A stretch of 64,000 nt of DNA from a virus: IMG/VR virus record IMGVR_UViG_3300027518_000006. One strand, written 5' to 3'. Shown here piece after piece: positions 28,308 to 58,212 of this stretch. The first letter of the stretch is position 1, and every line of letters starts with the position of its first letter. Below the pieces are notes generated by a model that was not told the origin of the DNA, made no database searches, and saw only the letters and a list, made by a program, of their open reading frames with translations. Both the position numbers and the translations under genes were made by a program.

Positions 28308-30434
28308 TTAAGCGTTTGTAGTAGATGTGTAGATTGAAGTAGAACTATTTAAATATGGAGTCGTAGCAGCAGTGCCAGCATAATTTCCAAAAGTTGTCAT
28401 ACCACTACCTCCAGTAATTCTTAAACCGTAAAGTGCTATATTGCCTGATGAAGTACCTTTGTACATCCTATTACCTATTATAGAGCATCTGGTAGAAACA
28501 AGATCTATAAATATAAAACTATAAGTGTTGCTTGTTTCAGTAGACACATTCTTTATCATATTATTAGTTATCATACAATCATCAGAATTTTCTAAAATAA
28601 TACCGTGTCTCATTACCCACTCAATTCGATTAGAGGTAACCAAGGCTTCTACGCAATCTGCAAGATATATTGCATGTCTTCCAGTTGTAACTGCAGGGGA
28701 TGGTCTAAAATGATTTCCAGATATAACTAAGCCGTCTATGTTTCTAGCAGTTATACAATCTCTTCCTGTAGATTGACTTTGTTGGAATATGTTATTTTGA
28801 ATACTTATATTAAAAGATGTATGCCATGAATCTGAAGTAGAGGTTGTTCTAAAACCTAGTCCAACTCCGCCAGCACATTCAGAAAAATTATTACCTTGAA
28901 TAATTGCTTCTCTCCAAACAGCATCTGATCTAACAGCATATTCTGTCATCCCATCAAATGTGTTATTAATTACTTTAATTTCTTCGTGATATCTTTCTGC
29001 TAAAACTGTTGATCCACTTGTATCTGCAGAGTGACTTCCAACACCAGTTGGCCATGCTACTGTACCAGCAAATCCAGAAGATCCAAAATAACAGCCTTCT
29101 ACGGTTACATCTTTACAAGTTGTTTTATCGTAAGATCCAAATTCTCCAAATACCGTAGACCTAAATGCACCATCTATTTGTATAGCCTCTGAATAACTCC
29201 TTCCTCCAGTATCAACAAACCCAATAAATTTACAATCTTTAATTCTTACTGTCTTAGAACTATTTATTTCTATAGCATGAAATCCACCAACATTTCTAAA
29301 TGTTGATTGTTCTACAACTATATTGTCTCCATGTGCAAAACTAAATATATTAGATGGATTAAAAGGATATGCGGTTGCTCTACAATCCCAGTCTCCACCT
29401 ATAACTTTAATATTAGACTGTCCAGAATATTCAGAATAAGATGCACCAGTATCTCCATTCCACAACATACTACCACCAGAGTATTCTTTTCTCATGTAAG
29501 CAAATTTTGACATTAAAAGAGTTGTATAAGAATAAATTCTAAGTCCAGAACTTAAATTCCATAGCCCACTTGGAATGTATACCGTTCCCCCACCAGCATC
29601 TCTTGCTGCATTTAATGCATTTTGAATTTTTGATCTTGAATCTGCTTCATTTGAAACTGCTCCAAAGTCCCTAACAATATCATAAAAATTAGTTATTGGT
29701 GCAGCGCTTCCAGATCCACTAGCAGCCGAACCATTTAAAAGAATTCTATTATTAGCGTCATCGTAGGTTGCTGTTATGTTAGTGTGAAAATTATGGTTTA
29801 ACAATGGTGCTGCTGCATCTTGTATTTCTTCTGTTGTAACAATTACTGAAGCAGAAGAGGCTGATGCAGATAAAAGAATTCTATTATTAGCGTCATCATA
29901 TGTTGCTGTTATGTTTGTGTGAAATGCGTGATTTAAAAGAGGGGCTGCTGCATCTTGTATTTCTTCTGTTGTAGGCGAGGCTGAGGCAGAAAGTAATACT
30001 CTATTGCTGTCGTCATCGTAGGTTGCTGTTATGTTTGTATGAAAAGCATGATTAAATAAAGGTGCTGCTGCATCTTGAATTTGTTCTGTAGTAACTGTTG
30101 CAGATGGAGATGATCCTGTAATTAAAACACCGTTTACGGTTAAACTACTTCCAACAACGAGGTTTCCATTAATATTTGCATTGTTTATTACCGAAGCACT
30201 ATTTAAATTAGCAACTCCAGATGTAGTTAGGGTAGAAGTAGAAATATTTTTATTAGACAACAAATTTTCTATAGAACTATTAACAAATGCTGCAGAGGGA
30301 GTATTATAAATCAATATATCATTGGCAGAAGCGCTTACTATGTTTACCCCGCCAATTGCGTTTATATTTACTGCTTCTTGAAAAAGACTTGTCCACTGCC
30401 CAGTAGAAGAATCAAATACTTTTGGATATGTCAT
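28308..30434 (-). CDS. Tail spike / fibre with right-handed beta-helix (pectate lyase-like) domain
   Basis: DFGAV..ADSRSKIQNALNAA...GGGTVYIPSG.W; many I..N.F repeats. Confidence 0.8.
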   Translation of the reverse strand: MTYPKVFDSSTGQWTSLFQEAVNINAIGGVNIVSASANDILIYNTPSAAFVNSSIENLLSNKNISTSTLTTSGVANLNSASVINNANINGNLVVGSSLTVNGVLITGSSPSATVTTEQIQDAAAPLFNHAFHTNITATYDDDSNRVLLSASASPTTEEIQDAAAPLLNHAFHTNITATYDDANNRILLSASASSASVIVTTEEIQDAAAPLLNHNFHTNITATYDDANNRILLNGSAASGSGSAAPITNFYDIVRDFGAVSNEADSRSKIQNALNAARDAGGGTVYIPSGLWNLSSGLRIYSYTTLLMSKFAYMRKEYSGGSMLWNGDTGASYSEYSGQSNIKVIGGDWDCRATAYPFNPSNIFSFAHGDNIVVEQSTFRNVGGFHAIEINSSKTVRIKDCKFIGFVDTGGRSYSEAIQIDGAFRSTVFGEFGSYDKTTCKDVTVEGCYFGSSGFAGTVAWPTGVGSHSADTSGSTVLAERYHEEIKVINNTFDGMTEYAVRSDAVWREAIIQGNNFSECAGGVGLGFRTTSTSDSWHTSFNISIQNNIFQQSQSTGRDCITARNIDGLVISGNHFRPSPAVTTGRHAIYLADCVEALVTSNRIEWVMRHGIILENSDDCMITNNMIKNVSTETSNTYSFIFIDLVSTRCSIIGNRMYKGTSSGNIALYGLRITGGSGMTTFGNYAGTAATTPYLNSSTSIYTSTTNA
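29737..30092 (-). repeat. Three ~35-aa repeats TTEEIQDAAAPLLNHAFHTNITATYDDANNRILL
   Basis: Near-identical copies at about 29737-29840, 29872-29972, 29993-30092. Confidence 0.9.
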
Positions 30435-30904
30435 AACTCTATTACACCTGTATCAAAAACTTGAATACTTTCTATTTTTTCTGGTGGGAAAGGATAACTT
30501 GGAAGTTGTCCTACAACTCTTAAAGATGTTGGACTTTCTCCTTCTTCTGAAAATATCACTGTACTATTATTTGCAATTCTTCCATAAAACTCAAAATCTG
30601 CATAATAGTCCCACTTTATAAAAAGATCATATTCAGAAATTTTTCTTCTTACAACACTTCCAGAAGGTAGGTCTATTGTTATTTCTTCTTTCCAATTTAA
30701 TTCGTAAGGACCACCTTCTTTAAGTGCTACAACTCTTGCATCTACTTGATTTGGGCTAATTTGACCAATGCTTGTTAAACTAAAAATTTTAGACCATTCT
30801 GAAATACTGTTTCTATCTTCTGAGGATATTCTAAATCTAATAGAATGTTTTCCATTTTTATAAGGTGGAGGCAATTTTTCTAAAGGAATTCTAAACTTTG
30901 CCAC
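30431..30904 (-). CDS. Minor tail protein
   Basis: Position in tail module. Confidence 0.5.
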   Translation of the reverse strand: MAKFRIPLEKLPPPYKNGKHSIRFRISSEDRNSISEWSKIFSLTSIGQISPNQVDARVVALKEGGPYELNWKEEITIDLPSGSVVRRKISEYDLFIKWDYYADFEFYGRIANNSTVIFSEEGESPTSLRVVGQLPSYPFPPEKIESIQVFDTGVIEL

Positions 30905-32031
30905 TATCCATCAACGCCCAACCCAAACCTATACTCAATATAGTTATTAGTATTTTCTGATTTTAAAATAGGTAAAGCGTTCTGTGTAGATATTAAATTG
31001 TATCCTACTAGTGAATAAAGAGGGTTTAGAGTAGATATATTTTCTATTCTCATACCGTCATAAATAATAAAGTAATTGTTTGTAGGTACCCCCGAACTTA
31101 ATACAGAAGTAAATATCTTGATGTAGTTAATGTTTGCAAAAGAAAAATTATCATCTTTAATTAATTGTGATATATCTCTTGTGATTACAAGATATCTGTT
31201 TGCTGAACCGTCTTGTGTAAAATCAGCAGAGGTTAGTCCTATATTCAACGTTGCCTTTGGACGTTCTGAATCAATATTAGAAACGTTATTTATAAACTGA
31301 ATTACTATTCTAACATTATCTGGGTTTGTATTTTGACTAAAAGTTCTACTTACTAGGCTTAGTGCTATTTTAATTTTATCTGTAGGGTTATTTCTACTTA
31401 GATCAAAGTTTAATGTAGAATTTTCTAAATATGCTGCACCCTCTGGTATAGTATAGGATGAGTTTATGTAAGAACTACTTCCACTTACCATCAATGCTTT
31501 GCTTAGTAGTCTTGGGGGCTCTTGTCTTATCTTTCTTGTATTGTTATTAAAGATATCTGAGTCAGAGTTAACAAATTGTGCTGATAAAGATGTTGTGATA
31601 TTGCCGTTATTGTCTCCGCTGTCAATTGCACCGTTTGGCTGTAATAAAACTGGTGATGCTGCTCCTGTTACAACATAAGACCATTGTTCAATAGGGCTAA
31701 AGGTAACTATCAGTTTGCTATCATACTTTCCAGCAACAGAGTTTGCTCCTGCTGGGTATAGTCCAACCTCTGATATAAGGTATCTTTGGCTTGTTGGCAT
31801 TTCTGCTTTAAATACAATTTTTTCTACATTGTCCTCTTTAACAAAACCTTTGGCTATAATTGGAACCCTAAAAACCTCAAAATCAAGGGATTGTACGGAG
31901 GCTGATACTAATGATGCCTCTCCTGTTTCTAGTGGCTTAGGACCGCTTCCAGCGGCTATATGGGTGGCAAAAGCAGGTGCTTGTCCAAGTAGGAACTTTG
32001 CAATAATCTGTTTTCCGTTATTTGTTATCAT
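30904..32031 (-). CDS. Minor tail / baseplate protein
   Basis: MITNNGKQIIAKFL..., ISEVGLY; tail module. Confidence 0.55.
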   Translation of the reverse strand: MITNNGKQIIAKFLLGQAPAFATHIAAGSGPKPLETGEASLVSASVQSLDFEVFRVPIIAKGFVKEDNVEKIVFKAEMPTSQRYLISEVGLYPAGANSVAGKYDSKLIVTFSPIEQWSYVVTGAASPVLLQPNGAIDSGDNNGNITTSLSAQFVNSDSDIFNNNTRKIRQEPPRLLSKALMVSGSSSYINSSYTIPEGAAYLENSTLNFDLSRNNPTDKIKIALSLVSRTFSQNTNPDNVRIVIQFINNVSNIDSERPKATLNIGLTSADFTQDGSANRYLVITRDISQLIKDDNFSFANINYIKIFTSVLSSGVPTNNYFIIYDGMRIENISTLNPLYSLVGYNLISTQNALPILKSENTNNYIEYRFGLGVDG

Positions 32032-32771
32032 AATTGATCCACTTCAAATATTGTACCACTTGTGTCTATCTCAATTTCTACAATTTCAGAATCTTTTAAA
32101 TTAACAACTTCAATAACTAAATCTCCATTAGTATCTATATAAAGATAATCAGTTAAATTATTTTCTAAAAGGTATGTGTCAGAAGGGATTTTATCTTGTA
32201 GTTTAATAGGGAATATATCAAAAAATGAAGAGTCTGTTTTTTGAAGAGATATAAGGCTAGAAGGGTCAAATTTTCTTTTAATATCTGATAGGTTAGATAT
32301 AACATCATAGTATGGATTTATACCCTCGACTGTATCGTGTCTAACAAACTTAGTTAATTCATTGGCCCCAACGTTTTCAAATAATAGATTAGTTATTGTT
32401 TCTGCACTTACGGTTTCTTGTGCAAGACTTACTACGTCTCTTTCTGGAACCCTAACCATTTGTGGTGGTGGTGGAGGAAGTTGGACTACTGGCTCTGAAT
32501 TACTATAGTTTGTATCTGGCGGCGGTGGATTATTGCTTGACTGTTGTTGTTTAACAATTCCAGAATTAAACTTAAAATTTGTACCAGAAAACAAAACAGT
32601 TGTTCCTGCTTTTTGTCTAGCAGCCAAAGTTTTATTTTGTGTTATTGCTTGTTGAACTTGTTTTGTAGTTACTTGTTGTTTAAGTTGTGCAGAAAGATCT
32701 TTTGCAATTTTTGCAGGAGTATCTCCTTTTTGAACAGTTACCTTTCCAGTATTTTTATCTATTTTTGCCAT
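32028..32771 (-). CDS. Tail protein with N-terminal LysM-like segment
   Basis: VTVQKGDTPAKIAK, poly-Pro linker. Confidence 0.5.
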   Translation of the reverse strand: MAKIDKNTGKVTVQKGDTPAKIAKDLSAQLKQQVTTKQVQQAITQNKTLAARQKAGTTVLFSGTNFKFNSGIVKQQQSSNNPPPPDTNYSNSEPVVQLPPPPPQMVRVPERDVVSLAQETVSAETITNLLFENVGANELTKFVRHDTVEGINPYYDVISNLSDIKRKFDPSSLISLQKTDSSFFDIFPIKLQDKIPSDTYLLENNLTDYLYIDTNGDLVIEVVNLKDSEIVEIEIDTSGTIFEVDQL

Positions 32772-35700
32772 TATACTTCCACGACCTTAAGTCTATTAGA
32801 AACTCCTCCAGAAGATCTAGAGTATGATATTTCTGATATAACAAATTTTTTATCTGGATCTACAAACAGGTCGTCATCTGGAAGGGTATAGTTAATTTTT
32901 ACAATATCCCCTAATTGTAAGTGTGGGGTTCCAAAGGTTTGAATAGACATAGTCTTTCTTGGCTTAACTGTTTTTTTAACCATCCATTCCATTATATCTC
33001 TTGCTAAATCACTACTTTGAATATATGCAGAGTCTAAAGAAAAAGATCTATCTCCATATTTAGATCTACTTAACTTAACATCTTGATATATTTTATCTGC
33101 CCTTTGAGGAGACCTAATGGTATTATTAACAACAATAGGGTCTGAAAAATTAGATATGTCTCTATAGTAGTCATCAACAGTTAATACATTAGAAGTATTT
33201 TGAGTAAATGTTACTCCTACTATTCTTAAATAACTACCCGAAGTTTCATCTAGCACAATTGCCTTATCTGTATTATTGAATATTAAGAACTCTGCTCCGT
33301 ATGAGCCAGCCCTAAAACCAGACACGGTATAGGTTTTCTCGCTGTTAAAAGTTGGGGCAAGGAAAGCAAGAAATGCTGGGAATGCTTTGTCATACTTAAT
33401 ATTAAAATAAGCACACTCTCTTAGTATAGTTCCAAACTCTTCAAAGTATATAGAGTATTTTGGAGCATTGTTCGAACTAATTCCAGAAAGATATGTTGAC
33501 TGGACCAAGCCAGATACAGCATACTTTCTTATAGCGTCAGAAGAAGATATATCTCTATTTGAAAATACATTTGATACACTGTTTACTACAGATACACTAC
33601 TTTCTTTACTTTGTAAATTCTTTAATGCATATACATTTTCAAACATACATTTTGATGAGCCGCGGGTAAACAAAGCAATATTATTATATGCTGGCAAAGG
33701 ATCTGTATCATCTACTGTAGATATTAATATGTTATTTAGATATAGATAGAATCTTCTAGTTGTACCTATGTTTTCATATTCAATGGCTAAATCGTATACC
33801 GTTGGATTTTTTTGATTTAGTAGTCTATCTTGTCCAACAAACTTTCCTTCATCAACAAGTATCTGGGTTAGTCCTCCGTACAACTTATACGGAACTGCTA
33901 CTGTAGCACCATTTACGGTTCCTGGCTGAACTTTATAAAATACAATATTGTGCAATACGCTAGTTGTCTGGTTAGTAACAGCATCTGCTAGTGTATATTT
34001 TTGTAAATTATCTCCAGTTAAAGATATAATTTCAAAAAAGTATCCATAGTTATTATCTGGGTTTACCATTGCTGCAATACCACCAGACCCACCTACTACT
34101 GTTGAAGGTTCGTTTGCTGTTTGAGGATCTACGGAATAATAATCTGAAGCATTTTGTGCTGTTAGTATTTTCTCGCTTGCTTCTGGTTTTCCAATAATTC
34201 TCATTCTTGTTCCAAAGTGTTTATAGTCTTGATCCATTGCTTTGTATACATAAGTTACAAAATCTGTTTTATTAATTGTTGCTGGCATTGGGGTTGGTCC
34301 TGTAAAAATAAAAGCAGAAGATTGAACCGTTCCGCTTGCAGTTGTTTTAAGTGATTTAACAAAGTCATCATCTGGAACATTTTGTCTCATAAAGTTTGCT
34401 AAAATTCCTGTTCTAGAAGAAGTAATTGCCGTAGTTGTGTCTGCTCCAACTGTTGGACCAAGTGCTACTTTTGTAGGAAAAGGAATAGACGCTGTTGGTG
34501 TAGTTGTAAATAAAAATTGAGATGCCATTTTTATGCCACGAACATACGAATTGTCTGACCAGTAACTTGATAGACCAGCGTTATGCTCAACTGCGGTTGT
34601 TCCAAATTGTGCACGTCCATGTGATTTTACAACACCATTTTTGTAAGTAACTCCTGGCTCTAATCCAACTACTGCTGCAGAGTCTAACTCTTCATAGAAT
34701 GGTTCTGTATAAATTCTTATATTGCCAGTAGCGTACATTTTTCCATTAAAGGGAAGTGTTGAAAAATATTTTTGATACTCTTGATTACTTGTAAGAAAGA
34801 ATGTTCCTTGTCCTGGAATTGTATACTCTACTGCATCGTATCTAATAACTTCTCCATTAGCGTAAAGGTATCCTTGAAATCTTGGTAGCCAGTATACGTT
34901 TTCTCCAATGTCTATAATGTTATTTCTAATTATATTGTTTTCAACATATGGTACAGATGCTGATAGTGTTGTATTTAATGCTACCGCTCCCAAAGCGTAT
35001 CCACCAGATTTTGACTGCTCGTTTACTGTTTTAGTCTCTTGTTGGTCTGCTATCTCCCATAGCAATACTGGTTTATAAACATAAGTTCTATCTTGATCTA
35101 CTTTTATTGCTTGATTTAATGATGATACAGATCTTTGTATATATCTTGTAACATAGTTAATTCTTCCATTATTAATAATTTTTGTTTCTACCCCATCAAT
35201 ACTTATAATGTTAGGTAGTACTGATCCGCTAGATACTGCAGTTTTTTCTGCATACAATACATAATCTTCTTCTCTTTGATAAGTTTCAGGTAGTAGGTAT
35301 TCTTTTGACATTACTACAAAGTTATTGTATTCGTCAAAGAACATTGCTGTTTGAGTTGCTATTGCTAGTCTTTCTAATACCTCTGCTACTGAAGCGTCTG
35401 GCTCAACAAAGAAATATGGAATGATTGGATCGTTTGTATTAGTTATATTTTTAAATACATAGTTACTAAATCCTATATAGTCTAAAAGCACTGCAACTGC
35501 TTTTGTTAAGGTCGTGTTATTAAGCATGATGCTTGGGGCTGTCATTGTTTCTAGCCTAAAGAAGTTATCTCTTAGTGGTATGGATAGATTTGAAAGTCCA
35601 CCTACAACAGATGGGAACTCTTCGGAAAAGAAAGTTTTTAAAGGAATAAATTTATCATAGCCATTAACATTTAATATTGCTTCATAGAAGTCAAACTTTA

Positions 35701-37156
35701 CATTTGGTTTTAATAGTCCATATACAAGGCTGTCAGTATTATTTTCATTGAATGCCCCGTCATAATTTAATAATTCAACCTGTCCGTTTGAGGCTACTAA
35801 GCCACCTACTGGCAAGCCATAGTCAGATTTAGATATAGTTTTATTAGTTTCAAAACTTAATACATATGAAGATATGTCTGCTTTTAATCTAGGAGATAGT
35901 TCTATTAAATCAAAGGTAGTATTAGGTCCATACATAGTTTCTACTACTAGTCTTAATCCTTTTAGATATACTACATCTCTATATACCCTTTGATTATTTA
36001 TTGTATAAAATAAGGGGTCAGATAAATCTTTAACCATACCGATTCTTTTAGTATCGTCATCTTCTAATAAGGAGAATCCGTATTCGGGAATTGACACGTC
36101 CCATTCTCCAGAGTCGTAATTCCAAATATACAGAGTTCCAGGACTTGATGTGGTTGCTCCAACAATGTAGGATTCTCCGTTAGTTAGTCCAAACGAAAGT
36201 TGGGTACTGGCACTAAGGTATTCAACAAAATTAAATGAGTCTTTATATTCATCTGGAACTTTTATTCCATAATATATTTCTGTATATCCATCCCATGAAA
36301 CTATATTTGTATTATCTCTTCTTAAACTATTTTCATCAAATGATATTGCTTCTACCCAATTATTATTTTCATCTAGGTATTGTATCTTCCATCTTTTAGG
36401 AATACTAGACTTAGTTATATCTCCAAGAGGATCTACTATTGTTTGACCGTCAGAGGTTCTTATATTTGCAATAGGATCTTCTGCAAGATTAGTTTGCATT
36501 TTTACAACTATTCTATTTGACGGAAGTGCTGTCTCGTATGTTACAAAAGGTGCAACATCGTCAATCTTGTGTCCAATTCCAGCAAAAACTATATCTCCAC
36601 CTGAGTCTCTAACTACAGTTGAGTCTACAGCAGAAGATATACCAAATTCAAAAGTGCTAGTATTATCATTAGATGTTACAGATTCTTTACGATACGAATT
36701 CCAGTATTTAAATTTATCATATCTAGAAGCCATATAATATCTTGGTCTTCTACCTGATCTTATGTTGTCTACATATTTATTATTAAACCATAAGGCTTTG
36801 TTTATACCTGAGCGTGGGCGAAAGGGTTGAAAACATTCTTTAAGTGAAAAATATAATTCTCTATCTACTTCATTTGTAGTAAACAATAAAGAAGCATCGT
36901 TGTCATCTACAGCATACTCTGAAACTGTCTTAGATTCTAAAGCATCTAAATAATAGTTCGCGGTATCGTTAGAATCATATGAATTAATTAAATTAACATA
37001 TATAGATGATGCTGCATTGCCTGGTCTATATCTATAGTTTCCATAATTAGAAATATTCTCTAAATCATTTAAATTCCATTCAGCAGTTACTAATGATTCT
37101 ATTTGTAATGTATTTTTAGTTTTTATATGATCTAAAAGTTCTTCATCATTGAACAT
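32771..37156 (-). CDS. Large tail hub / Tal-like protein
   Basis: After Dit-like gene; C-terminal GTPHLQLGDIV...FVISEISY hub motif. Confidence 0.65.
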   Translation of the reverse strand: MFNDEELLDHIKTKNTLQIESLVTAEWNLNDLENISNYGNYRYRPGNAASSIYVNLINSYDSNDTANYYLDALESKTVSEYAVDDNDASLLFTTNEVDRELYFSLKECFQPFRPRSGINKALWFNNKYVDNIRSGRRPRYYMASRYDKFKYWNSYRKESVTSNDNTSTFEFGISSAVDSTVVRDSGGDIVFAGIGHKIDDVAPFVTYETALPSNRIVVKMQTNLAEDPIANIRTSDGQTIVDPLGDITKSSIPKRWKIQYLDENNNWVEAISFDENSLRRDNTNIVSWDGYTEIYYGIKVPDEYKDSFNFVEYLSASTQLSFGLTNGESYIVGATTSSPGTLYIWNYDSGEWDVSIPEYGFSLLEDDDTKRIGMVKDLSDPLFYTINNQRVYRDVVYLKGLRLVVETMYGPNTTFDLIELSPRLKADISSYVLSFETNKTISKSDYGLPVGGLVASNGQVELLNYDGAFNENNTDSLVYGLLKPNVKFDFYEAILNVNGYDKFIPLKTFFSEEFPSVVGGLSNLSIPLRDNFFRLETMTAPSIMLNNTTLTKAVAVLLDYIGFSNYVFKNITNTNDPIIPYFFVEPDASVAEVLERLAIATQTAMFFDEYNNFVVMSKEYLLPETYQREEDYVLYAEKTAVSSGSVLPNIISIDGVETKIINNGRINYVTRYIQRSVSSLNQAIKVDQDRTYVYKPVLLWEIADQQETKTVNEQSKSGGYALGAVALNTTLSASVPYVENNIIRNNIIDIGENVYWLPRFQGYLYANGEVIRYDAVEYTIPGQGTFFLTSNQEYQKYFSTLPFNGKMYATGNIRIYTEPFYEELDSAAVVGLEPGVTYKNGVVKSHGRAQFGTTAVEHNAGLSSYWSDNSYVRGIKMASQFLFTTTPTASIPFPTKVALGPTVGADTTTAITSSRTGILANFMRQNVPDDDFVKSLKTTASGTVQSSAFIFTGPTPMPATINKTDFVTYVYKAMDQDYKHFGTRMRIIGKPEASEKILTAQNASDYYSVDPQTANEPSTVVGGSGGIAAMVNPDNNYGYFFEIISLTGDNLQKYTLADAVTNQTTSVLHNIVFYKVQPGTVNGATVAVPYKLYGGLTQILVDEGKFVGQDRLLNQKNPTVYDLAIEYENIGTTRRFYLYLNNILISTVDDTDPLPAYNNIALFTRGSSKCMFENVYALKNLQSKESSVSVVNSVSNVFSNRDISSSDAIRKYAVSGLVQSTYLSGISSNNAPKYSIYFEEFGTILRECAYFNIKYDKAFPAFLAFLAPTFNSEKTYTVSGFRAGSYGAEFLIFNNTDKAIVLDETSGSYLRIVGVTFTQNTSNVLTVDDYYRDISNFSDPIVVNNTIRSPQRADKIYQDVKLSRSKYGDRSFSLDSAYIQSSDLARDIMEWMVKKTVKPRKTMSIQTFGTPHLQLGDIVKINYTLPDDDLFVDPDKKFVISEISYSRSSGGVSNRLKVVEV

Positions 37157-43700: not shown

Positions 43701-45671
43701 AAATGATTGTGCTTGTGATGCTCTAGTTTGTTCAGATATTAATACTCTATATGAATTAGTTAAATTTTTAATTGCTACGTCTGCACTGTTTGCAGAACCT
43801 ACTTGACTTAATAAAGCAGCGTTTGCTAATTCAGTTGCTGATCCTAACTGTCTTGCTGCATTTGCGGCATCTATTTCTGAAAGGCTTAAATAGTTTGCAG
43901 ACTGGGTCAATGTTTTTATTGCTGCTAATGGACCCTTTCTAAGTAAAGTAACTCCAAACATTCCCATAGAGTGTGTAAATTTAGCAAATGTACCAATTAA
44001 GTTAGCAAACAAACCAAATATCATAGTAGCGGCTGGAAGTAATACGCCACCTAATACTGTTGCTAATGCTGCAACATTTTTTACACCTTCTGGAAGTCTG
44101 TTAAAAGCATCAACTATTTTTGTAACCATGTTTACAAGAGGTATGGCCATTTTAACAAAGATTTCACCTAAAGGTGCTATTGCAATTTTTAGTCTTTCTA
44201 TTGCTCCAGTAAGTTGAACACTAAATGCCTGTTCTACTGTTGATAATTCTTTTTCTGCACTCTTAGCAAGTTGTTCTGTTGAATATCCTAGAGTAGATAT
44301 TACTTGTTGTGCTTGTGATCCCTCTCTAGAAATGTTTTCAAATAGTGCACCTAATCTTGCATATTGAAATTTTCCAAATATACTTTCTAGTGCTTGTTGT
44401 CTTGAGAATTCGTCTAATGTAGATAAGGCATCGCTAAAGGCCATAACAGTACCCATTAAATCTCCTCTATTAGTTTGAATAATAGAGTCAAGATTTATTT
44501 TAAACCCTGCTAATACATCTGTTGCTGCTTTTGTTGGATTAATTAAAGATCCAAGACCAGACTTTAATGCGTTAGCACCTTGCTCAGCAGATACGCCACC
44601 TTCTTGCATTGCTGCAAGAAATACTGTTAAATCTTTAACGTCTCCACCTAAGCCTTTAATAACTGGAGCAACACGAGGTATTGCTGCAGAAATGTCTTGT
44701 AAACTTACTACTGTTTGGTTTTCAACCATGTTTAAAAAGTTAATAGTGTCTGCTAGTTCTTGTCCAGATAACCTAAAAGCACTTTGAAGTGATATTGTTG
44801 TTTCAAGAGCAGCATTTTGATCCATCTGACCAAGTGTTGCTAATCTTGTTGACTCCCTAACTGCATCAGTTAAATCTGTGTTTTGTCTACCTGCTGCTGC
44901 AGCCTGTGCTGCTAAAGATAAAGTATCTTTTGCTGCAATTCCATACTTTGTAAATTCTCTACTTAGTCCTTGAACTGCTTTAAAGTTTTCTTGTAATTCT
45001 GCTGGTGTAGTAAATATATCACCATATACTTTTTTAAATGCTACTGCTTGTTTTTCTAAATCTGAAAATACCCGACCTGCTGTTGTTCCAAATATTGTTA
45101 ATGGTATTGTAAAACCAACCATAAGTTGGCGACCAGTCCATTGTACGTTTTTACCAAAATTAATTAACCCAGTTGTGCCTTGCTTAAACATTGAGTTTAA
45201 TATTTGCATTCTTTGAGCAGACACTGCTGCATCAGCGGAAAATGCTGTAAGTGGTCTAACTGCAAGGGCCTCTTGCATACCTTTTGATGCTTTTGCTGTA
45301 GCAATAAATTGAGTTTGCATTGTTCTTGCACGTTCTGCTGCAAGGGCAAATACTTCTGCGGCCATTCCGCCTTTTTTATTAAAAGACGCACTAAAGAACT
45401 GACCTAATGTTCCTTGACCTTTTCTTAAAGTGGAATCAAGTGCTCCAGCAGCAGTTTGCATTTTAACAAGTTCTGCTCTAAAAAAGCCACCTGTATTTAT
45501 TGAATTTTTAAGTCCTTCTGCAAAAACTCTTGAGGCTTGGCCTTGTTCTAATTGACCTTTATTTAATGTAAGATTGAAAGCATTTATCTGCTGTTGTAAA
45601 CTTCTTAATTCGGCTGCGGCACCACTGGTATTGATGTCAACATCAATTACCGTTTTAATAATCTCTGCCAC
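37758..45671 (-). CDS. Tape measure protein (2637 aa) with internal variable modules
   Basis: TP901-like core (GTQLMVGFT, LATLGQMD, SLQDISAAIPR, GANALKSGL); Ala/Gly/Leu helical; follows chaperone. Confidence 0.93.
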   Translation of the reverse strand: MAEIIKTVIDVDINTSGAAAELRSLQQQINAFNLTLNKGQLEQGQASRVFAEGLKNSINTGGFFRAELVKMQTAAGALDSTLRKGQGTLGQFFSASFNKKGGMAAEVFALAAERARTMQTQFIATAKASKGMQEALAVRPLTAFSADAAVSAQRMQILNSMFKQGTTGLINFGKNVQWTGRQLMVGFTIPLTIFGTTAGRVFSDLEKQAVAFKKVYGDIFTTPAELQENFKAVQGLSREFTKYGIAAKDTLSLAAQAAAAGRQNTDLTDAVRESTRLATLGQMDQNAALETTISLQSAFRLSGQELADTINFLNMVENQTVVSLQDISAAIPRVAPVIKGLGGDVKDLTVFLAAMQEGGVSAEQGANALKSGLGSLINPTKAATDVLAGFKINLDSIIQTNRGDLMGTVMAFSDALSTLDEFSRQQALESIFGKFQYARLGALFENISREGSQAQQVISTLGYSTEQLAKSAEKELSTVEQAFSVQLTGAIERLKIAIAPLGEIFVKMAIPLVNMVTKIVDAFNRLPEGVKNVAALATVLGGVLLPAATMIFGLFANLIGTFAKFTHSMGMFGVTLLRKGPLAAIKTLTQSANYLSLSEIDAANAARQLGSATELANAALLSQVGSANSADVAIKNLTNSYRVLISEQTRASQAQSFLFGTGQAASNLGKGAAATVATRGKSRIKSIGLNKGGTVFTPDNSNTVPGVGNTDKVPAMLTPGEFVVNKESTKNNLGLLHSINAQRLNVGGKVKNGIQYAMSGFRIGNIPGYSAATNAVAAKLAGAGQATRTRGTAAKTSNKAEQLKNNFVYLLNPSNNQQLTGVRTMKEFDKRGVPLDVLKQDMVSEEGLWMIDALAKGNWKKDAYKSTLENNFANIAAKYPGKEIRFLDSAGLERVQPLLGKPEYQNVQFVSVKDLQNKELLNNLTPDHLQSLMTEATQVSKKLRTSKSRGTTSVKDTYEGIAGMESYTKIQENWRGAKRPAGRHGAHMYNMGGKVKGYRLGGMQEIVKDVYKNRTSIFAHLSHLTRPTGQQKNRMLSSIFQNKDHYQRKRDLIKLGIDPKKAETLSRGTLENATKKLKDIGLYTPGFGGGASAVASGPYNLMQERFRQIAKYGITQSSIQKLKTQNSSGLSKIPPDELVRIAKLLDTPEYSYMLEGSLPLTPQHSAKAAEMYGQILKNLPKGSKEAADISRIQQSLTKRSELSSDKYLSFIKRRMKAAHVNAGGKSRDIDSLLSNLPKNYTADDILNTVFNIKNPLLKDAKFASKRLKNQFKETKIGNAKPESLTKTLLERFGVHSKTLALGLNKGGKVPGIEYANIGKMIGKAMGLNADDALGAFGLLKPSVRSGGKTKIPKNLTMKEIFEHKEFKEGIYLVQPEGGKAYEASLYYFNGKPRLQRHGKYNVGSGIGTQTRQFDPIDVDPNMRASIYNRNEYTGSNVSGPFKANKGSIVPGTGNTDTVPAMLTPGEFVVNKKSTKQNYDLLTAINNGKMNKYNKGGVASGIQYFAEENEQRVVKAANPKGYTQARGAAGMVGGMLPLMLGNMGPMQSMVASIISMSVASKATGVAMKLLTGRAANVAGEFKFLGNIITKLGPGLTGTLGIGGAAITLGIALNNMAKKTTQAGSEFVNATYGSANTMAEFAKSMGKENIQQQLTTKRAEVAGGGVISQESKQSSSQFLETAGGKELLENASTVAKTRGVKGRDQAILNQLLRGVVTQSITAEEARAIAIDIGTKLNDQTIGINIGAKLNKLVGPNGEKLSDNLLNISAIITPKIDAQEAQKIVNEQWQNTGLLSKFAMIITGRGTDDMLAKTIATQAQQAAQVTTEQLDLLKYELEQGSITYQEFILQKESLTKASVASTGEALATIIREFDGDMSKATDAIKTFRAEVNKGFELKLSGMGKADAAKVRKFVNTFETAGAPPQTVQVGKSGTSYNATKVNENQADILRQITDPNILLALSKIEDINVNQKLEDMFAIDPTLVATMQDYVTAGGQVADFMSKSTTEMSSYKTELDRLAGVQEKFKTGIDITELLLNPDKLSEFTKQASVAQSALDALSLQKNITKEVAMNVITTYMGENATAKKLLEHYLSTGNKFKDLDLNAIITMSVSNPDIASALAVIEQAKKGANVGIAALVKAYEILGGKTASSIGAGGSGSNDGAKSALQSAKDAALQTKQSIAAQSKLLAAGISLEALEGLSPEAIIELGKQSGKQLRDNIKLFNEQAESIKINRLVLEQLALEENPVKKALEDSKKAVEGYDDQIKELNKTIEKSNRADELDRRKIEDRNKALDNLSKKEKNVNDQYDERIKALDKVANANDRVAERQRQQIDLASALTSGDIAGAAQAAASMTQTGAQNQIEDTKTALEAQRQAELDGLTESVNGRLMTRKDIQAEIDSIEETIYQRSINLRTTNDAIYALQQTINTEKERQDQLNKVLDAQEDALTKKTLDKLKNEKGITAEKKKQTEDAIRAAYIAYTGKGKGIGLEKYRKDVLGLAFGGMIKKYAYGGNVGYKGSKEAPPRLKMARGSLVPGLGNTDRVPALLTPGEFVVRKSVAQANMPLLKALNSDVFPSMSLNSPEVAPTVTSSTSTILNNTPVYNYSISVNVPNTTASPDEIANVVVSRIKRSMDTNIRSNRY

Positions 45672-46377: not shown

Positions 46378-46400
46378 CCCACCTCTTGAAAAGAAGTGGG
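46378..46400 (-). terminator. Intrinsic terminator after major tail gene
   Basis: CCCACTTCTT-ttc-AAGAGGTGGG-TTTT. Confidence 0.75.
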
Positions 46401-46425
46401 CAATGTGTTTATTTAGTTGTTTTGG

Positions 46426-47112: not shown

Positions 47113-47167
47113 CCTCCTTTTATAAGGAAAAGTGGGGCTGTTTCCTCAATACTATTATATCGTGCTT

Positions 47168-47767
47168 TTAGGACTCATTATATTGTCTAGAATGATAGTC
47201 GTATTTAATGATAAGATCCCTAGAAGGTCTATATTCCATTAAATTAGATACATCTTGTTGACTTTCTGCATACCCCGATTGAAAAACATTTATACATTGA
47301 AACCTATATTTATAATAATCATATACAGAAGCACTTGCAGAAACAGGATAATTATCATATAGTTCTTCTGCAAATTCATTTATATCATCTGCTGCAGCAT
47401 CTTCTCTATCTAATACAAGGGTAATTAAAGAAGTAAGGTTAATAGTATTTCCATATCTATCTGCCCCGTTTGCTACGTCTCCATATAAAGAGCCACCATA
47501 AATGGTATATCGCATTTGTTCACTTTTAATAGGATAAAAATATTTATAAGAACCTGTTCTTACTTTAGTAAATTTATCAAATACTATATAAGGTAAATCT
47601 CCATCTAATATTTCAGGAGGAACATTTCCTGCACCCGCTGGAAAAAATGGAATCAAACTATTGCCACCAACTGTTTGTGGATACAGATTATAAAAGGCTG
47701 GGGCCTGTGTTCTAAACTGTTCCCACACATATCTATTGATTATATTCTCTGGTCTGTAAAGTGTCAT
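47168..47767 (-). CDS. Tail terminator / completion protein
   Basis: Position between neck genes and tail tube. Confidence 0.55.
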   Translation of the reverse strand: MTLYRPENIINRYVWEQFRTQAPAFYNLYPQTVGGNSLIPFFPAGAGNVPPEILDGDLPYIVFDKFTKVRTGSYKYFYPIKSEQMRYTIYGGSLYGDVANGADRYGNTINLTSLITLVLDREDAAADDINEFAEELYDNYPVSASASVYDYYKYRFQCINVFQSGYAESQQDVSNLMEYRPSRDLIIKYDYHSRQYNES

Positions 47768-48468: not shown

Positions 48469-48929
48469 TTTTGTATTTGTGACTTGCTTATAAATAGTCT
48501 AAAATGTCTTAGTGTATGATCATAGTTAAATGTAGGAACTATAGTCTTTACTTCATACTTAGTTTTAATTGCACCCGCAGCATTAGAAAGGTTTTGTCCA
48601 TTAATCCATACATCATTTCCTGCAGGGTCTTTAATGTTAGTAATGGCTATTGCGGTAATCGGCATATATGAACCATTGCTTTTTTTTCTTAAATCTTCTT
48701 TAGTTCTAAAAAATGCATTTGAGTCATACACGAAGTCTTGTCCTTTGGTTTTTAATTCACCAGCAAAACCTCTATTGGACAGTTCACTTATTACTGAGCA
48801 GTATACTGTTCTATCAAATACCCAACTTTTTACTATATTACCATAATCATTTTGTGTGGTTTGAGAATAATATACTTCTGCTGTCATTGGAAACAGTATA
48901 TCGTCTAAACTAGATGATGGAAGAAACAT
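48456..48929 (-). CDS. Head closure protein candidate
   Basis: Position; DYGNIVKSW..DRTVYC. Confidence 0.55.
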   Translation of the reverse strand: MFLPSSSLDDILFPMTAEVYYSQTTQNDYGNIVKSWVFDRTVYCSVISELSNRGFAGELKTKGQDFVYDSNAFFRTKEDLRKKSNGSYMPITAIAITNIKDPAGNDVWINGQNLSNAAGAIKTKYEVKTIVPTFNYDHTLRHFRLFISKSQIQKWDQ

Positions 48930-49819
48930 TACAAAACCCCGATACGAAGCCTGTTTCTATACTTCTCCAAAATTTTGTCAACAAACATGTTTCCTGTATT
49001 GGTAGTTGGGTTTTTAGAAAACTTAATTTTAAAGTCTTCATTATCAAATGATTCTATATACCTGCTTATGTATTTTAGGTTATCCGACTTAATGTCTTGG
49101 ATTAGCATCTCACATGCCTCTTGGATGTCCTGTGGTACCACTTTCCAGCCATAATCGGCATCTACTCTATACTCTGACCCATCTGCAAAAGCAGGGTCCA
49201 AATATCGCTCGTGCCATACTGGTTTATAGTTAACCTTGTTTTCAGCGTCAGATTCATTTTCTACATTTGTAATTGAAGATCCGTCTTTAGTAATTGCGTA
49301 TGTTACAAGATTTACACTAGCACTAAGACTTGAATTATATATTAACTCTTCGTTTTTATATACCTTATATATTTTATAAATCTTTTCATCAATAGGAAGA
49401 TAGTCCATACCCATACCAATAATATCTTTTTCTTTTCTAACAAATGGAAAACCTTGTGTTTGAGAGTCTATAATATATCTTGCTAATCTTTCATATCCTA
49501 TTTCACTACCGTCAGTAATTGATAGTGCTGAAGCAACTGAATCTAAGTTGCAATATGGTCTAACAATTTCTATGTTTGTCATTATTACAGTGTTGCCACT
49601 TGAGTCTTTAACGGATGCTGCTAGTGATCCTGTATAGTCTAAATATTTTGGTGCTAAAGTAAATGATACTGCTCCAGAAATTGTTGATGCAGATGCTGAA
49701 AATGATTCTCCTGTGTAAAGGTCTTCGTAATCTAATGTGTATGTTCCACTTGGAGAAATTGTAAAAGTGGCGGTAAGAGAAGTAACTTTTTTATATTGTC
49801 TTTGATTTAATATTTCCAT
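48929..49819 (-). CDS. Head-tail adaptor
   Basis: YGWKVVPQDIQEACEMLI motif; after capsid gene. Confidence 0.7.
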   Translation of the reverse strand: MEILNQRQYKKVTSLTATFTISPSGTYTLDYEDLYTGESFSASASTISGAVSFTLAPKYLDYTGSLAASVKDSSGNTVIMTNIEIVRPYCNLDSVASALSITDGSEIGYERLARYIIDSQTQGFPFVRKEKDIIGMGMDYLPIDEKIYKIYKVYKNEELIYNSSLSASVNLVTYAITKDGSSITNVENESDAENKVNYKPVWHERYLDPAFADGSEYRVDADYGWKVVPQDIQEACEMLIQDIKSDNLKYISRYIESFDNEDFKIKFSKNPTTNTGNMFVDKILEKYRNRLRIGVL

Positions 49820-49843
49820 ATTTAAATAAAATCCTCCTTACTA

Positions 49844-49852
49844 ATTATATCA
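49844..49852 (-). promoter_or_regulatory. Extended -10 TGATATAAT
   Basis: After capsid terminator, before AGGAGG SD. Confidence 0.55.
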
Positions 49853-49867
49853 TTTATATAAAATGTT

Positions 49868-49898
49868 GAAGGGGAGACATTTTTGGTGTCTCCCCCTC
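49868..49898 (-). terminator. Intrinsic terminator after major capsid gene
   Basis: GAGGGGGAGACA-loop-TGTCTCCCCTTC stem. Confidence 0.75.
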
Positions 49899-49919
49899 TA
49901 ATTCCCTAAATAATTTAGG

Positions 49920-50912: not shown

Positions 50913-50939
50913 AATTTTTCACCTCCCAGTGAATTTTGT

Positions 50940-52616: not shown

Positions 52617-52671
52617 ACTACTTCTATTATATAAGTGTTTATAAGAGATTTTAAAAACTTGTAACTATTTA

Positions 52672-54231: not shown

Positions 54232-54586
54232 TTTTGTTTATCCCTTTTTTAGCATCCATCCAGGCACCAATGTCGGTTTCGCTGGCAATATATCCTTCTT
54301 TCATTCTTCCAATTTGTTCAGAGTATTCCATATCTGATACTCTTCTTACTCCTGGCATAAAAATTACTTTTCCTGCTGGGGCATTATAATATCTAGCGGC
54401 CTGTGCTACCTTGCTCATCTTATCTAAATCATACTGATTACCTGGAATATTCATTACGTTGCCACCTTTGTCTCCAAAAGCCTTTCCATTATGATCCATC
54501 TGCCACACATATAGGCCATATCTTTGTTGTTTATTAAGTACTTTTAACTTTGACTTACCATTTTTGTCAATATTATTATTATTCAT
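54221..54586 (-). CDS. Hypothetical protein upstream of portal
   Basis: Leaderless start after TGATATAAT. Confidence 0.65.
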   Translation of the reverse strand: MNNNNIDKNGKSKLKVLNKQQRYGLYVWQMDHNGKAFGDKGGNVMNIPGNQYDLDKMSKVAQAARYYNAPAGKVIFMPGVRRVSDMEYSEQIGRMKEGYIASETDIGAWMDAKKGINKNGE

Positions 54587-54592
54587 AACCCA

Positions 54593-54601
54593 ATTATATC
54601 A
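54593..54601 (-). promoter_or_regulatory. Extended -10 TGATATAAT, leaderless start of head operon
   Basis: 6 nt to ATG at 54586. Confidence 0.6.
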
Positions 54602-54603
54602 GA

Positions 54604-57600
54604 TTATACAGGTCTTCCGCTATACTCTTCCCAAATTGTTCCAGTAATTATTGTTATGCCGTCAGAATTAATAGATAAGGTTGAATTATCTCTTCCAACT
54701 ACACTAGAAACTCCAAAAGTAGAATCATAAATTGATTTTCCATCAACAATAAATGTTAAAGGCTCACTCTGTCCTTCTATTTCTTCCCAGATTCCAGCAC
54801 CAGATTGATACCATGATCCCCATGTGGTATCTGATCTTAAGTCTCTCCACTCGTTATCAATGAATATAGAACCAAGAACGTCTGAAAACTTTTTGTAAAA
54901 TGCAATATTATTAACCATTAATCCTTCATATATTTCTAACTGCCCTACAGAACTTGGTAAATCTATAGACTCTTCAAAAGTAATTATTATTGTATTCCAA
55001 GATAAAGGTTGAATATATGGATTATCTACAATATTACCGTTTTGATAAAAAACTATACCAGTTGCTTCATTGTTAGTATCTTCGTCAAAAAGAACCATCT
55101 TAGCCCTAGTATAATTTGACTCTGGAACTAATTTAATATCATAAGATCTATTTCTAGTAGAAATCTTTCCTACCTGTACCGTTTCTTCTATCGTTTCACC
55201 CTTGTTGTAAAAACTCCAAAACTGAACACCTCCAAGCAAATACTCTGTTGCTAACTGTTGATTAATTGGAATGGTGATACCTCTAGTAGCAGTACTGTCG
55301 TATGGGAGAACGCTGATACCAGAATCTCCAGTATTATACATATAAGAAGTAGAGTCTTTATATATAGTAAAAGGGTTTTTTAGTTTATAAGCATATATAT
55401 CTCCATATCTATTAAATGGAAATAGTTTATATCCATCAGGACTATTAATGGAATAAAAGGATGATTCATCATATGCTAATGAAGATATAGACATTTTTCT
55501 AAGTTTGATAGGGTTTTTATTTATACCCTTTGAATTAATTTCTATATGAACTGTTATATAGTAATCTGCAAAGTCAACTAGTTGTTTAGGTGGAAATATA
55601 ACTGTTCTATCTGTTACTTCAAACTTAGTATTATTTATTTGGGTAGTAGTATATTCATCTAAATCTAATACTCTGTCTGCTCCTATTCTTACAGAATTTA
55701 TATATTCTGTATAAGGAATATTTCCAACATCTGTATATTTTTGCAAAGTTATATATGTCTTAATGGTGTCATTTTCTTTTAAAAATAATTTAGACAATAT
55801 GTCTAATTGTTCATCTGTTAGATATTCAACAAATTCAACAGTTTCTGGATTTCCACCGTCAAAACTAAAAATAAAACTAGAAGCAGAGGTTGTGGGCGAT
55901 CCGCCATCAAAGTAAAATTTAAAATCTAATGAAGTAGACAGCCCTCCATCAAGAGCAGGTATTTGGTCTTTTTGTAATATTAATGATGATGGAGAATCTA
56001 TATTAAATTGTAAAAGATCTAAATCGTAGTAAGGATTTTTATTTTTATCTTCTACAAATTTTCCAAAATATGATAAAGGTATTGAGTCTTCCCAGTATCC
56101 AGAACTTCCAATATCTATAGTAAGGCTATTTGATAAAATCTGTGGATGAAAGGTGTAGTTTCCAATATAGTATATTAAATTTTCTGTATCTATCTCTGGG
56201 TTAAAAAATCCATTGTCTAATTTGTATTCAACTAAATCTTTATCTGTAAACATTCTATTATTAAATGTAAAATTAAATATTTTTCCACTAAACATTGATG
56301 ATTGATTTCCACCCAAACTAAAAGATATGTTTTGGGGGTTGGAAAAGAAGTTATTTAAAGTACTTGAATATTCTTGAGATATGGTGTCTAAGTCAAAACC
56401 AGCAACAAATATAGCATTTCCCACAATAGGGTGATCAAATATCTTAGTATCGTTATAGAAGTACTCTACTCCTGCGGTGCTTGTTTTAACTGTAAAGTTG
56501 TTATTATTGAAGTTGTTAGAGAAGTACATTAATACTTCTTTAGTAGCAGTCAGAGTAGATGGTGCTCTAAATACCCCGAATATACTTTTAACTGGGGTAC
56601 TCAAAACATTCAAACTATTAAAATTAATACTTGAAACTATGTTGTCATAATTTGCATTAGGCTTTAATTTGATAAATGGATAGTCAGATCCTTGTATATT
56701 ATAGTTATCTATTAAGAAATTATCTAAGTCTACCACTTCACTAAAAATAATTTGTGGAAGAGAGTATTCTAAATTTGTAAGATATTTAGAGGTGCTGTTA
56801 GAGTTATTAAAGAATCCTGAGTTCCAATCGTTCATGTCTGGGTAGTTTATAGTAGAGGTGTATTTAGCGTAGGGGAAGTCTACCTGGAAAGAGTCTCCTT
56901 TAAAATTAGACACAATGTTATTTGCTGACTCAACTCCTTGAGCGTAAACAAATCTTTTCTTTGCAATTTGCTCTGGAACTACGTATGGATAAATAGCAAT
57001 AGCGTCTATTTCAAATGGGTATACATTTTCATTTCCATAAACTCCTACATAGTTATAATCTTTATCTGCCAATGTAAATTTATTTTGATCTATGTCCATA
57101 TCAATAACTAAATCTCCATTGATTAATAATGAAGCAGTATCTATGTTATATCTAAAGTCTAGTAGCATAGGTCTATACCATTTACCTATAAAATAAGACT
57201 TTTTATATGATCCTATTTTAATTGTTATAAAGTCTTTATCTATATAAATACCGTCAGTTTTTGTAAGTGGACCAACAATTTTTATTGGAGTTGTTGCGTT
57301 TGTATGTGCTCTTAGCCAAAACTCTAATGTAGTTTCTTTGTATCTTCCAGATTCATTTAAAAATCCTTCTGCTGGAAAAACCATAGATGGAATATTTCCA
57401 TAAAGAGGATATGTAATATTAGTTATATTTGTAGCACCAAAAGTAATTGGAAAGTTATCGCTATATGAAAGGGCTCTATTTTTTTCAACTATATAGTAAC
57501 CGTTTTTAGATTCTGCTATTCCATAAGAGTCTGCTACTACCCCAGTTATTGCTGAGGCTGACAAAGAAGATGATGCAGAAATGATGCTTAATATATTTGG

Positions 57601-58212
57601 GTCTATGCTTGCTGATAAAGTTCCAGTACTTTGATAATGGTGCAGTTCAGACCATTGACCAACCGATAAAGCATTTATAGAAAAGTTATAATCAGGTCCA
57701 GAGTTTCCTATTGAAGCGTTATCATATTTAACTTTAAAATATGGATATATATTGACATTGCCTGTAGGAATATTTAAAGTATGACTTACCTTTGTCCATA
57801 CCTCTTCTCTTTCTGGGGTATAGGAAGTAAAAAAAGTAGAACCACTATGTATAAACCCTATATCAAAACTAGATACGTTGTTATAGTTGTAAGCAAAAGC
57901 ATTTATAGACAATGTTTTTTTATCAGGATCTAAATCTGTAATAGAATTTATTGCTGTACCCGATGCTGATCCTTGATATCCAGATGATGCAGAAATTACA
58001 GTCAATACATCTGTTTGCTCATTTTCAAGTATTAATCCAACTGGGTCTGATGCTGAAGAAGAAACTATGTTGCTTAGGTCCCAATTAATAATGCTTTTAT
58101 CTTGTATGCTTAATTTTGATATAAAAGAAAAATCATCGTCTAGGGCCCATAGTGCAAGTGGATGCTCTGCAAATATTCTTGCGGCATAAAGATTTGAGAC
58201 TTGATTAGACAT
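54604..58212 (-). CDS. Large putative virion protein with LamG/concanavalin-like beta domains
   Basis: EHPLALWALDD, TLEFWLR, LLINGDLV; Ser/Asn/Ile-rich. Confidence 0.6.
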   Translation of the reverse strand: MSNQVSNLYAARIFAEHPLALWALDDDFSFISKLSIQDKSIINWDLSNIVSSSASDPVGLILENEQTDVLTVISASSGYQGSASGTAINSITDLDPDKKTLSINAFAYNYNNVSSFDIGFIHSGSTFFTSYTPEREEVWTKVSHTLNIPTGNVNIYPYFKVKYDNASIGNSGPDYNFSINALSVGQWSELHHYQSTGTLSASIDPNILSIISASSSLSASAITGVVADSYGIAESKNGYYIVEKNRALSYSDNFPITFGATNITNITYPLYGNIPSMVFPAEGFLNESGRYKETTLEFWLRAHTNATTPIKIVGPLTKTDGIYIDKDFITIKIGSYKKSYFIGKWYRPMLLDFRYNIDTASLLINGDLVIDMDIDQNKFTLADKDYNYVGVYGNENVYPFEIDAIAIYPYVVPEQIAKKRFVYAQGVESANNIVSNFKGDSFQVDFPYAKYTSTINYPDMNDWNSGFFNNSNSTSKYLTNLEYSLPQIIFSEVVDLDNFLIDNYNIQGSDYPFIKLKPNANYDNIVSSINFNSLNVLSTPVKSIFGVFRAPSTLTATKEVLMYFSNNFNNNNFTVKTSTAGVEYFYNDTKIFDHPIVGNAIFVAGFDLDTISQEYSSTLNNFFSNPQNISFSLGGNQSSMFSGKIFNFTFNNRMFTDKDLVEYKLDNGFFNPEIDTENLIYYIGNYTFHPQILSNSLTIDIGSSGYWEDSIPLSYFGKFVEDKNKNPYYDLDLLQFNIDSPSSLILQKDQIPALDGGLSTSLDFKFYFDGGSPTTSASSFIFSFDGGNPETVEFVEYLTDEQLDILSKLFLKENDTIKTYITLQKYTDVGNIPYTEYINSVRIGADRVLDLDEYTTTQINNTKFEVTDRTVIFPPKQLVDFADYYITVHIEINSKGINKNPIKLRKMSISSLAYDESSFYSINSPDGYKLFPFNRYGDIYAYKLKNPFTIYKDSTSYMYNTGDSGISVLPYDSTATRGITIPINQQLATEYLLGGVQFWSFYNKGETIEETVQVGKISTRNRSYDIKLVPESNYTRAKMVLFDEDTNNEATGIVFYQNGNIVDNPYIQPLSWNTIIITFEESIDLPSSVGQLEIYEGLMVNNIAFYKKFSDVLGSIFIDNEWRDLRSDTTWGSWYQSGAGIWEEIEGQSEPLTFIVDGKSIYDSTFGVSSVVGRDNSTLSINSDGITIITGTIWEEYSGRPV

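Follow-up and report, generated by a model that had tools for sequence, protein, structure and literature searches.

Why a single tripeptide, Ser-Ala-Ser (SAS), should recur in the tail, neck and fibre proteins of a phage is the question raised by IMG/VR virus record IMGVR_UViG_3300027518_000006, of which a stretch of 64,000 nucleotides was analysed (hereafter the window). Every gene in the window lies on the minus strand, GC content is ~33%, and positions 28308-60232 form the structural module of a siphovirus. An earlier note on this DNA proposed that SAS marks exposed sites for O-glycosylation by the phage's own enzymes. We find that, in this phage and those closely related to it, SAS occurs five to eight times above chance in proteins of the tail, neck and fibres, that its enrichment is limited to the outer proteins of these structures, and that it turns over in position with a bias to insertions. 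Tentatively, with a probability of about 0.35, we interpret it as a selected surface serine motif that most likely serves as an acceptor for serine modification, with O-glycosylation as the leading candidate.

Enrichment of Ser-Ala-Ser in the window

Twenty-two SAS tripeptides (overlaps included) were found in six proteins totalling 4241 amino acids (aa), listed here together with the spike repeats and the lone occurrence in the tape measure protein:

28308-30434, minus strand: tail spike, 708 aa, with a C-terminal right-handed beta-helix; 7 SAS at residues 34, 79, 149/151 and 189/191/194 (30327-30335, 30192-30200, 29976-29990 and 29847-29870, respectively)
29697-30086, minus strand: three N-terminal tandem repeats of the spike, ~40-45 aa each (residues ~115-245), the first two ending in LLSASAS and the third in LLNGSAAS
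30904-32031, minus strand: 375-aa tail protein; 1 SAS (31897-31905)
32771-37156, minus strand: hub or minor tail protein, 1461 aa; 2 SAS (36206-36214 and 34955-34963)
45384-45392, minus strand: single SAS of the 2637-aa tape measure protein, at expectation (1 versus 1.4)
47168-47767, minus strand: putative tail terminator, 199 aa, named by position only; 2 SAS, as SASAS at 47327-47341
48929-49819, minus strand: head-tail adaptor, 296 aa, with an N-terminal Ig-like domain; 3 SAS, as FSASAS (49685-49699) and LSASV (49316-49324)
54604-58212, minus strand: p1202, a 1202-aa protein encoded between the NrdJ and portal genes; 7 SAS (58048-58056, 57985-57993, 57961-57969, 57607-57615, 57571-57579, 57553-57561 and 55879-55887)

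The remaining 49 open reading frames (ORFs) of at least 100 aa contain no SAS, and the window ORFs outside the tail set together hold one where 4.8 would be expected (P=0.047). All counts given in the earlier note were reproduced, and its coordinates at 30327-30335 and near 29850 are correct. The excess also survives comparison with composition-matched shuffles: the expectation for the six proteins is 2.7 by whole-protein shuffling and 3.25 by local shuffling in 40-aa blocks, compared with the 22 observed (z ~11), and SAS ranks first among all tripeptides in these proteins. Any tripeptide equally extreme appeared in at most 1 of 1000 shuffles of the six proteins and in 6-12 of 500 shuffles of all 19 structural-module ORFs. 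The latter set, which sidesteps the post-hoc choice of six proteins, contains 23 SAS versus ~6 expected (z 7).

Chance, amino acid composition or a signal at the DNA level would be the simplest account of these numbers, and the raw count is indeed inflated by overlapping SASAS and by the tandem repeats of the spike. Five of the seven spike SAS are SASAS in two ~40-aa repeat copies, and the longest run is SASASSAS. The repeat units (135 nt, 66-78% identical as DNA) share a core IQDAAAPL...HTNITATYDD followed by a Ser/Ala linker; they match no Pfam family, and although TRF reported no DNA tandem repeat in the spike gene, a separate repeat search did detect tandem repeats. With overlaps and repeats collapsed, 15 sites remain against 2.5-3.5 expected, a number reached in 0 of 5000 shuffles, even when shuffling was restricted to 15-aa blocks.

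Residue order and identity are equally specific. In the tail and neck set the same-composition permutations are flat (observed/expected, as in the counts below: SSA 4/3.0, ASS 5/3.0), none of SAT (1/2.3), TAS (3/2.3), SVS (3/3.2), SIS (3/4.1), SLS (3/3.4) or SSS (4/5.2) is enriched, and SGS (9/3.2) is the only other raised tripeptide among the variants compared. The 22 sites are encoded by 18 distinct 9-mers, in which both AGY and TCN serine codons are used, and the corresponding codon pattern occurs 22 times in frame and not once in either of the other two coding-strand frames. The signal therefore belongs to the protein rather than the DNA, and depends on the order of the residues as well as on serine. 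A composition artefact was rejected by the shuffles and the flat SSA and ASS counts, a DNA-level motif by the 18 distinct 9-mers confined to the reading frame, and a generic amphipathic S-x-S strand pattern, as far as the window goes, by SVS, SIS and SLS standing at expectation. Taken together, the shuffle, permutation and frame tests refute chance, composition and DNA-level signals, which we regard as a vanishingly improbable explanation.

A generic property of phage tails was likewise rejected, as the tail or virion proteins of four control phages show no SAS excess (LukeCage 6/4.7, Che8 2/3.2, T5 9/4.9, SPP1 1/1.7). The most extreme tripeptides in the control tail sets reach z values of 4.4-6.6, compared with 8.9 for SAS here under the same test; in the SPP1 tail set no tripeptide was frequent enough for ranking.

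Distribution and turnover among relatives

IMG/VR holds at least 192 contigs related to the window, of which 80 were fetched (capsid identity 78-98%) and ten long ones (G002-G011), including one complete genome of 101.7 kb, were analysed in full. These genomes share ancestry, and the pooled counts are thus descriptive rather than independent. All but one of the ten long relatives have SAS among their highest-ranking tripeptides. Their homologues of the tail and neck proteins and p1202 contain 148 SAS versus 31.5 expected (4.7-fold), compared with 1/4.5 in head proteins (0.2-fold), 8/13.6 in tape measure proteins (0.6-fold) and 13/19.2 in non-structural proteins (0.7-fold). A further 158 (48 expected) occur in proteins without a homologue in the window, mostly fibre paralogues encoded upstream of a conserved glycosyltransferase. 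The capsid protein has no SAS in the window or in 80 homologues, the portal protein has one in 53 homologues, and the tube protein, which has none in the window, carries at least one in 17 of 44 homologues.

Within the enriched proteins the motif is retained while its positions move. No orthologue of the hub, the 375-aa protein, p1202 or the adaptor is without SAS, but the positions differ: 16 distinct sites were counted across p1202 orthologues, 10 among eleven hub orthologues, and seven in the 375-aa protein, whose orthologues carry 1-4 SAS each. Alignment columns gapped in at least 40% of orthologues contain 14% of SAS, compared with 2.9% of all tripeptides, 6% of other S-x-S and 3.4% of SSA/ASS, so that SAS is about five times over-represented in lineage-specific insertions relative to average residues. 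The SASAS of the terminator, for instance, sits in an insertion present in the nearest relatives only. One site is fixed, namely the adaptor FSASA[ST], which is kept in 11 of 11 genomes; in 37 adaptor sequences with identities as low as 50%, conservation of residues S41, S43 and A44 is 90% or more. Spread of a single shared module was rejected, given 212 dissimilar 15-mer contexts. The earlier note had also remarked that most SAS are preceded by Leu, Val, Ile or Phe, which is true of the window (13 of 17 sites) but not of the relatives, where the proportion (31%) equals background.

Predicted structural setting and a structural alternative

Structures predicted with AlphaFold2 place the mapped sites mainly in loops and linkers. 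Residues 1-420 of p1202 (pLDDT 82) were modelled as two jelly-roll domains resembling CBM22/CBM32 modules and LamG-type lectin domains, which gives p1202 the appearance of a virion or fibre protein that binds carbohydrate. Of the six SAS in this N-terminal part, five fall in loops, at the ends of secondary structure elements or in the 188-235 interdomain linker, and one in a strand. The adaptor model (pLDDT 74 overall, ~90 for residues 1-86) has an N-terminal Ig-like sandwich in which SASAS occupies strand 39-46, with LSASV at residue 166 in a loop insertion. Judged on predicted secondary structure of monomers, two of the eight mapped sites are in strands; the other six belong to loops, linkers or the ends of elements. 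The models thus suggest that SAS tends to sit on accessory domains, linkers and insertions, probably exposed, rather than on core assembly folds.

The strand positions bring in an alternative that we consider nearly as likely as an acceptor motif, though doubtful in itself. SAS may be a structural idiom, a block favoured by this lineage in Ser-rich beta-strands, turns and fibre repeats, where small residues pack tightly, and spread unmodified by duplication and module exchange. The adaptor SASAS forming a beta-strand of the Ig-like sandwich fits this, as do the hydrophobic-S-A-S-hydrophobic context in the window, the multiplication of SAS by tandem duplication in the spike, and an approximately 1.5-fold enrichment of S-x-S with hydrophobic x across the family. 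About a third of the SAS in the relatives' fibre paralogues (51 of 158) lie in periodic ~10-aa units of the form xAS-[ST]x-Y-L/A-T, in which x is Ser in 40 of 63 cases and otherwise Asn, Thr or Asp, and an unrelated fibre beside a glycosyltransferase homologue of 55% identity repeats 'DV-SAS-AP'. On the other hand, S-V-S, S-I-S and S-L-S are at expectation in the window, Thr does not substitute for Ser, and SAS-x(1,2)-Y repeat units hold only 14-32% of SAS. The motif also recurs in six unrelated folds, mostly in loops and linkers where mapped, with its fivefold excess in lineage-specific insertions; the dissimilar contexts argue against spread of one module, and the tails of the four control phages show no excess. 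The strand and repeat component is real, yet it leaves the loop and insertion excess, the flat S-V/I/L-S counts in the window and the exclusion of Thr unaccounted for.

If SAS proves to be a structural idiom only, it carries a caution, in that ordered tripeptides can reach a 5-8-fold excess in tail proteins without any enzyme.

A possible acceptor motif and its parallels

For the acceptor motif, we posit that S-A-S, with S-G-S as a weaker variant, would be a selected short linear motif which one subclade of freshwater actinophage-like siphoviruses has kept on outward-facing accessory domains, loops and linkers of its tail, neck and fibre proteins. Its serines would be acceptor sites modified in the cytoplasm before or during assembly, the leading candidate modification being O-glycosylation by a phage-encoded glycosyltransferase, with variable sugar cassettes shaping the glycan. 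We infer three things: that these serines carry a modification in the first place, that it consists of a sugar, and the identity of the enzyme that adds it. A stricter version, in which SAS is a phage-specified O-glycosylation sequon read by a phage glycosyltransferase and interchangeable cassettes diversify the glycan on a sugar-coated tail, is in our judgement rather unlikely.

SAS itself is a common unit of serine-rich-repeat (SRR) proteins. In SRR adhesins, Ser residues are O-GlcNAcylated in the cytoplasm by GtfA/GtfB (PMC6973325). The phage motif resembles that of the SRR glycoproteins (GspB, Fap1, PsrP, SRRPs) in placing a putative Ser acceptor in alternating Ser-small-Ser, which in those proteins is primed by a cytoplasmic GT-B enzyme and elaborated by variable glycosyltransferases (PMC6973325). 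The difference is that SRRs form extended arrays of tandem repeats, disordered and carried by exported adhesins, whereas here isolated tripeptides lie within folded virion proteins. GtfA moreover carries a DUF1975 insertion and depends on both GtfB and the accessory Sec system; none of these three features was found among the window ORFs scanned. A second bacterial parallel is the modification of TibA and AIDA-I by TibC and AAH, which O-modify numerous serines in the cytoplasm, on a surface protein that is folded, beta-rich and repetitive; these enzymes are heptosyltransferases (GT9-like) that follow no strict sequon, and the autotransporter heptosyltransferase family has no match among the scanned window proteins.

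To our knowledge, glycosylation of phage virions has so far been established chemically for only a few mycobacteriophages. Like those of the Che8 type, the phage studied here encodes its own glycosyltransferases; theirs decorate virion proteins, the targets reportedly being the capsid and the tail tube. Mycobacteriophages with virions glycosylated by phage glycosyltransferases include Che8, Corndog and Myrna, according to Freeman 2023 as cited in PMC12363180. Among eukaryotic viruses, chlorovirus PBCV-1 has its capsid glycosylated by virus-encoded enzymes at non-canonical sequons (PMC5408694, PMC9614988). It offers a parallel as a virus that supplies both the glycosylation machinery and the rule for choosing acceptors without recourse to its host, and differs in that the glycans are N-linked, sit on the major capsid protein and are made by unrelated enzymes.

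If the stricter sequon version is true, SAS, in phages abundant in lakes, would give the glycosylation of bacteriophage virions its first defined acceptor motif. A motif that marks modified serines would provide a readable sequence signature: phage virion glycosylation could then be predicted from metagenomic sequence and put to the test on a compact reporter, for which the 95-residue adaptor domain would serve. Such a modification would also be relevant to the ways in which abundant freshwater phages adjust adsorption, stability or recognition of their hosts.

Relation to glycosyltransferases and sugar cassettes

Two loci in the window could supply the enzymes that this proposal calls for:

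61726-62814, minus strand: GT362, a GT-B (GT4-like) glycosyltransferase, from profile matches
93-4672, minus strand: sugar island encoding a HAD/beta-phosphoglucomutase-like domain fused to a sugar-1-phosphate nucleotidyltransferase, two methyltransferases and further unmatched ORFs (putative glycosyltransferases)

GT362 matches phrog_7162 at 2.6e-31 and, weakly, Glyco_trans_1_4 and TuaH, and its atlas clusters are named glycosyltransferase; sequence and profile searches of PDB with GT362 gave nothing usable. The family is large, with 225 cluster representatives at E<=1e-30. GT362 lies beside NrdJ in each of the nine enriched relatives whose contigs span the locus, and this uniform presence leaves no contrast among them. 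In favour of the acceptor reading, these phages carry a GT-B enzyme next to fibre and structural genes, together with interchangeable sugar cassettes. The exchangeable cassette occupies the locus downstream of the phage FtsZ gene: in the window (the 93-4672 island) and in relative G002 it encodes the HAD-nucleotidyltransferase, methyltransferases and putative glycosyltransferases, and in relative G006 (L102 5393-9970) a TIM-barrel sugar isomerase-like protein, an epimerase and an FAD oxidoreductase. In another relative (L123 130-1826) an epimerase/dehydratase-like gene, judged from an N-terminal GxxGxxG-type motif only, stands beside fibre genes.

Several observations weigh against glycosylation directed by these genes. 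The closest of the long contigs fetched, G006, lacks the 93-4672 island and is yet equally SAS-rich (19/6.6); the island is not needed for SAS enrichment. Conversely, the family member G012, which has a capsid 73%, a portal 70% and a GT362 homologue 57% identical to those of the window, lacks the enrichment in its tail set (6/3.1, z 1.6), with no SAS in p1202, hub or adaptor and with STS at the adaptor site, which also speaks for a structural idiom. Across 68 IMG/VR loci centred on GT362 homologues, the SAS excess in the flanks falls from 4.1-fold where the glycosyltransferase is at least 75% identical to 1.6-fold at 54-57% identity; most of the distant homologues lay on contigs too short for such a count. 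The capsid, the main target in known glycosylated phages, is without SAS; the Che8 capsid and tube also have none, as is the case for the capsid and tube of the window, and Che8 gp108-110 show no BLASTP similarity to the window glycosyltransferases (E > 0.09 for all pairs). Phage glycosyltransferases are credited more often with modifying DNA or the cell wall (PMC10202952), and the beta-strand sites and periodic fibre units described above count on the same side.

The motif belongs to a subclade and does not follow GT362. This weakens GT362 as the cognate enzyme and favours neither the acceptor motif nor the structural idiom decisively; a changed glycosyltransferase specificity or another enzyme could still be involved. 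The link that the earlier note drew to the phage's own glycosyltransferase and methyltransferase set is not supported, and SAS enrichment and glycosyltransferases do not co-occur across related genomes in the way it envisaged, as G006 and G012 illustrate. Its 'glycan-coated virion' is too broad, as a capsid devoid of SAS in 80 homologues would restrict any coat, should glycosylation occur at all, to the tail and neck.

A reader of SAS other than a glycosyltransferase would also fit a motif that tracks neither GT362 nor the sugar island, whether through another serine modification (phosphorylation or acylation, by a host or phage enzyme) or as a docking site for an assembly or decoration factor. 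The same signs of selection, namely an ordered, Ser-specific and surface-biased motif, apply to it. We know of no such partner, the window ORFs that were scanned yielded neither a kinase nor an acyltransferase nor any other enzyme that modifies proteins, and we consider this explanation improbable.

A 145-kb metagenomic phage (L132) with two GT362 paralogues shows no SAS excess (3/2.7), its tail tip lying outside the sequence covered. The paralogues are arranged in tandem (L132 1351-6511; 44-46% identical) and are directly preceded by three genes for 2-oxoglutarate-Fe(II) (2OG-Fe(II)) oxygenases.

Genomic setting and further fibre observations

The structural module begins with NrdJ, p1202, a 121-aa protein, the portal, a protease and the major capsid protein, continues with the 296-aa adaptor, two small proteins, the 199-aa putative terminator, an Ig-domain tube protein, a chaperone and the 2637-aa tape measure protein, and ends with a 200-aa protein, the 1461-aa hub, proteins of 247, 375 and 157 aa and the 708-aa beta-helix tail spike. 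No close cultured phage was found, the best capsid match being 42% (Streptomyces phages), and neither the 8.8-kb tail region (as DNA) nor p1202 (as protein) had a match in the isolate-phage collection. A 591-aa ORF at 13956-15731 has no Pfam match, and for the TerL named in the earlier note no gene could be assigned from the scans made of the window.

The order glycosyltransferase, ribonucleotide reductase, large unknown protein, small protein and portal is common to the window (58244-62814) and the Streptomyces phage LukeCage (Stanwilliamsviridae; L121 10261-18171), in which the hypothetical protein gp46 holds the position of p1202. The LukeCage glycosyltransferase at the syntenic place shows no BLASTP similarity to GT362, and LukeCage is thus not a valid control for the same glycosyltransferase.

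Fibre genes of the relatives are varied. Upstream of a 93%-identical GT362, two loci (L122 and L127, 312-5415) encode five fibre-like paralogues of 209-401 aa with AS-xx-Y-L-T type repeats, four of which begin M-x-[RK]-[TAS]-R-D-[VI]-[SA], and the same fibre array probably lies just past the window end at 64000. G012 (L214-L216, reverse-complement 2-1099) encodes a 366-aa Ser-rich protein of 'STDG-x-TW' repeats that looks like a beta-propeller, owing to which TWT and TDG are the top tripeptides of its tail set. In G004 (61062-62771; L095) a fibre protein combines SAS-rich repeats with a collagen-like GP[QE]GP run at its end.

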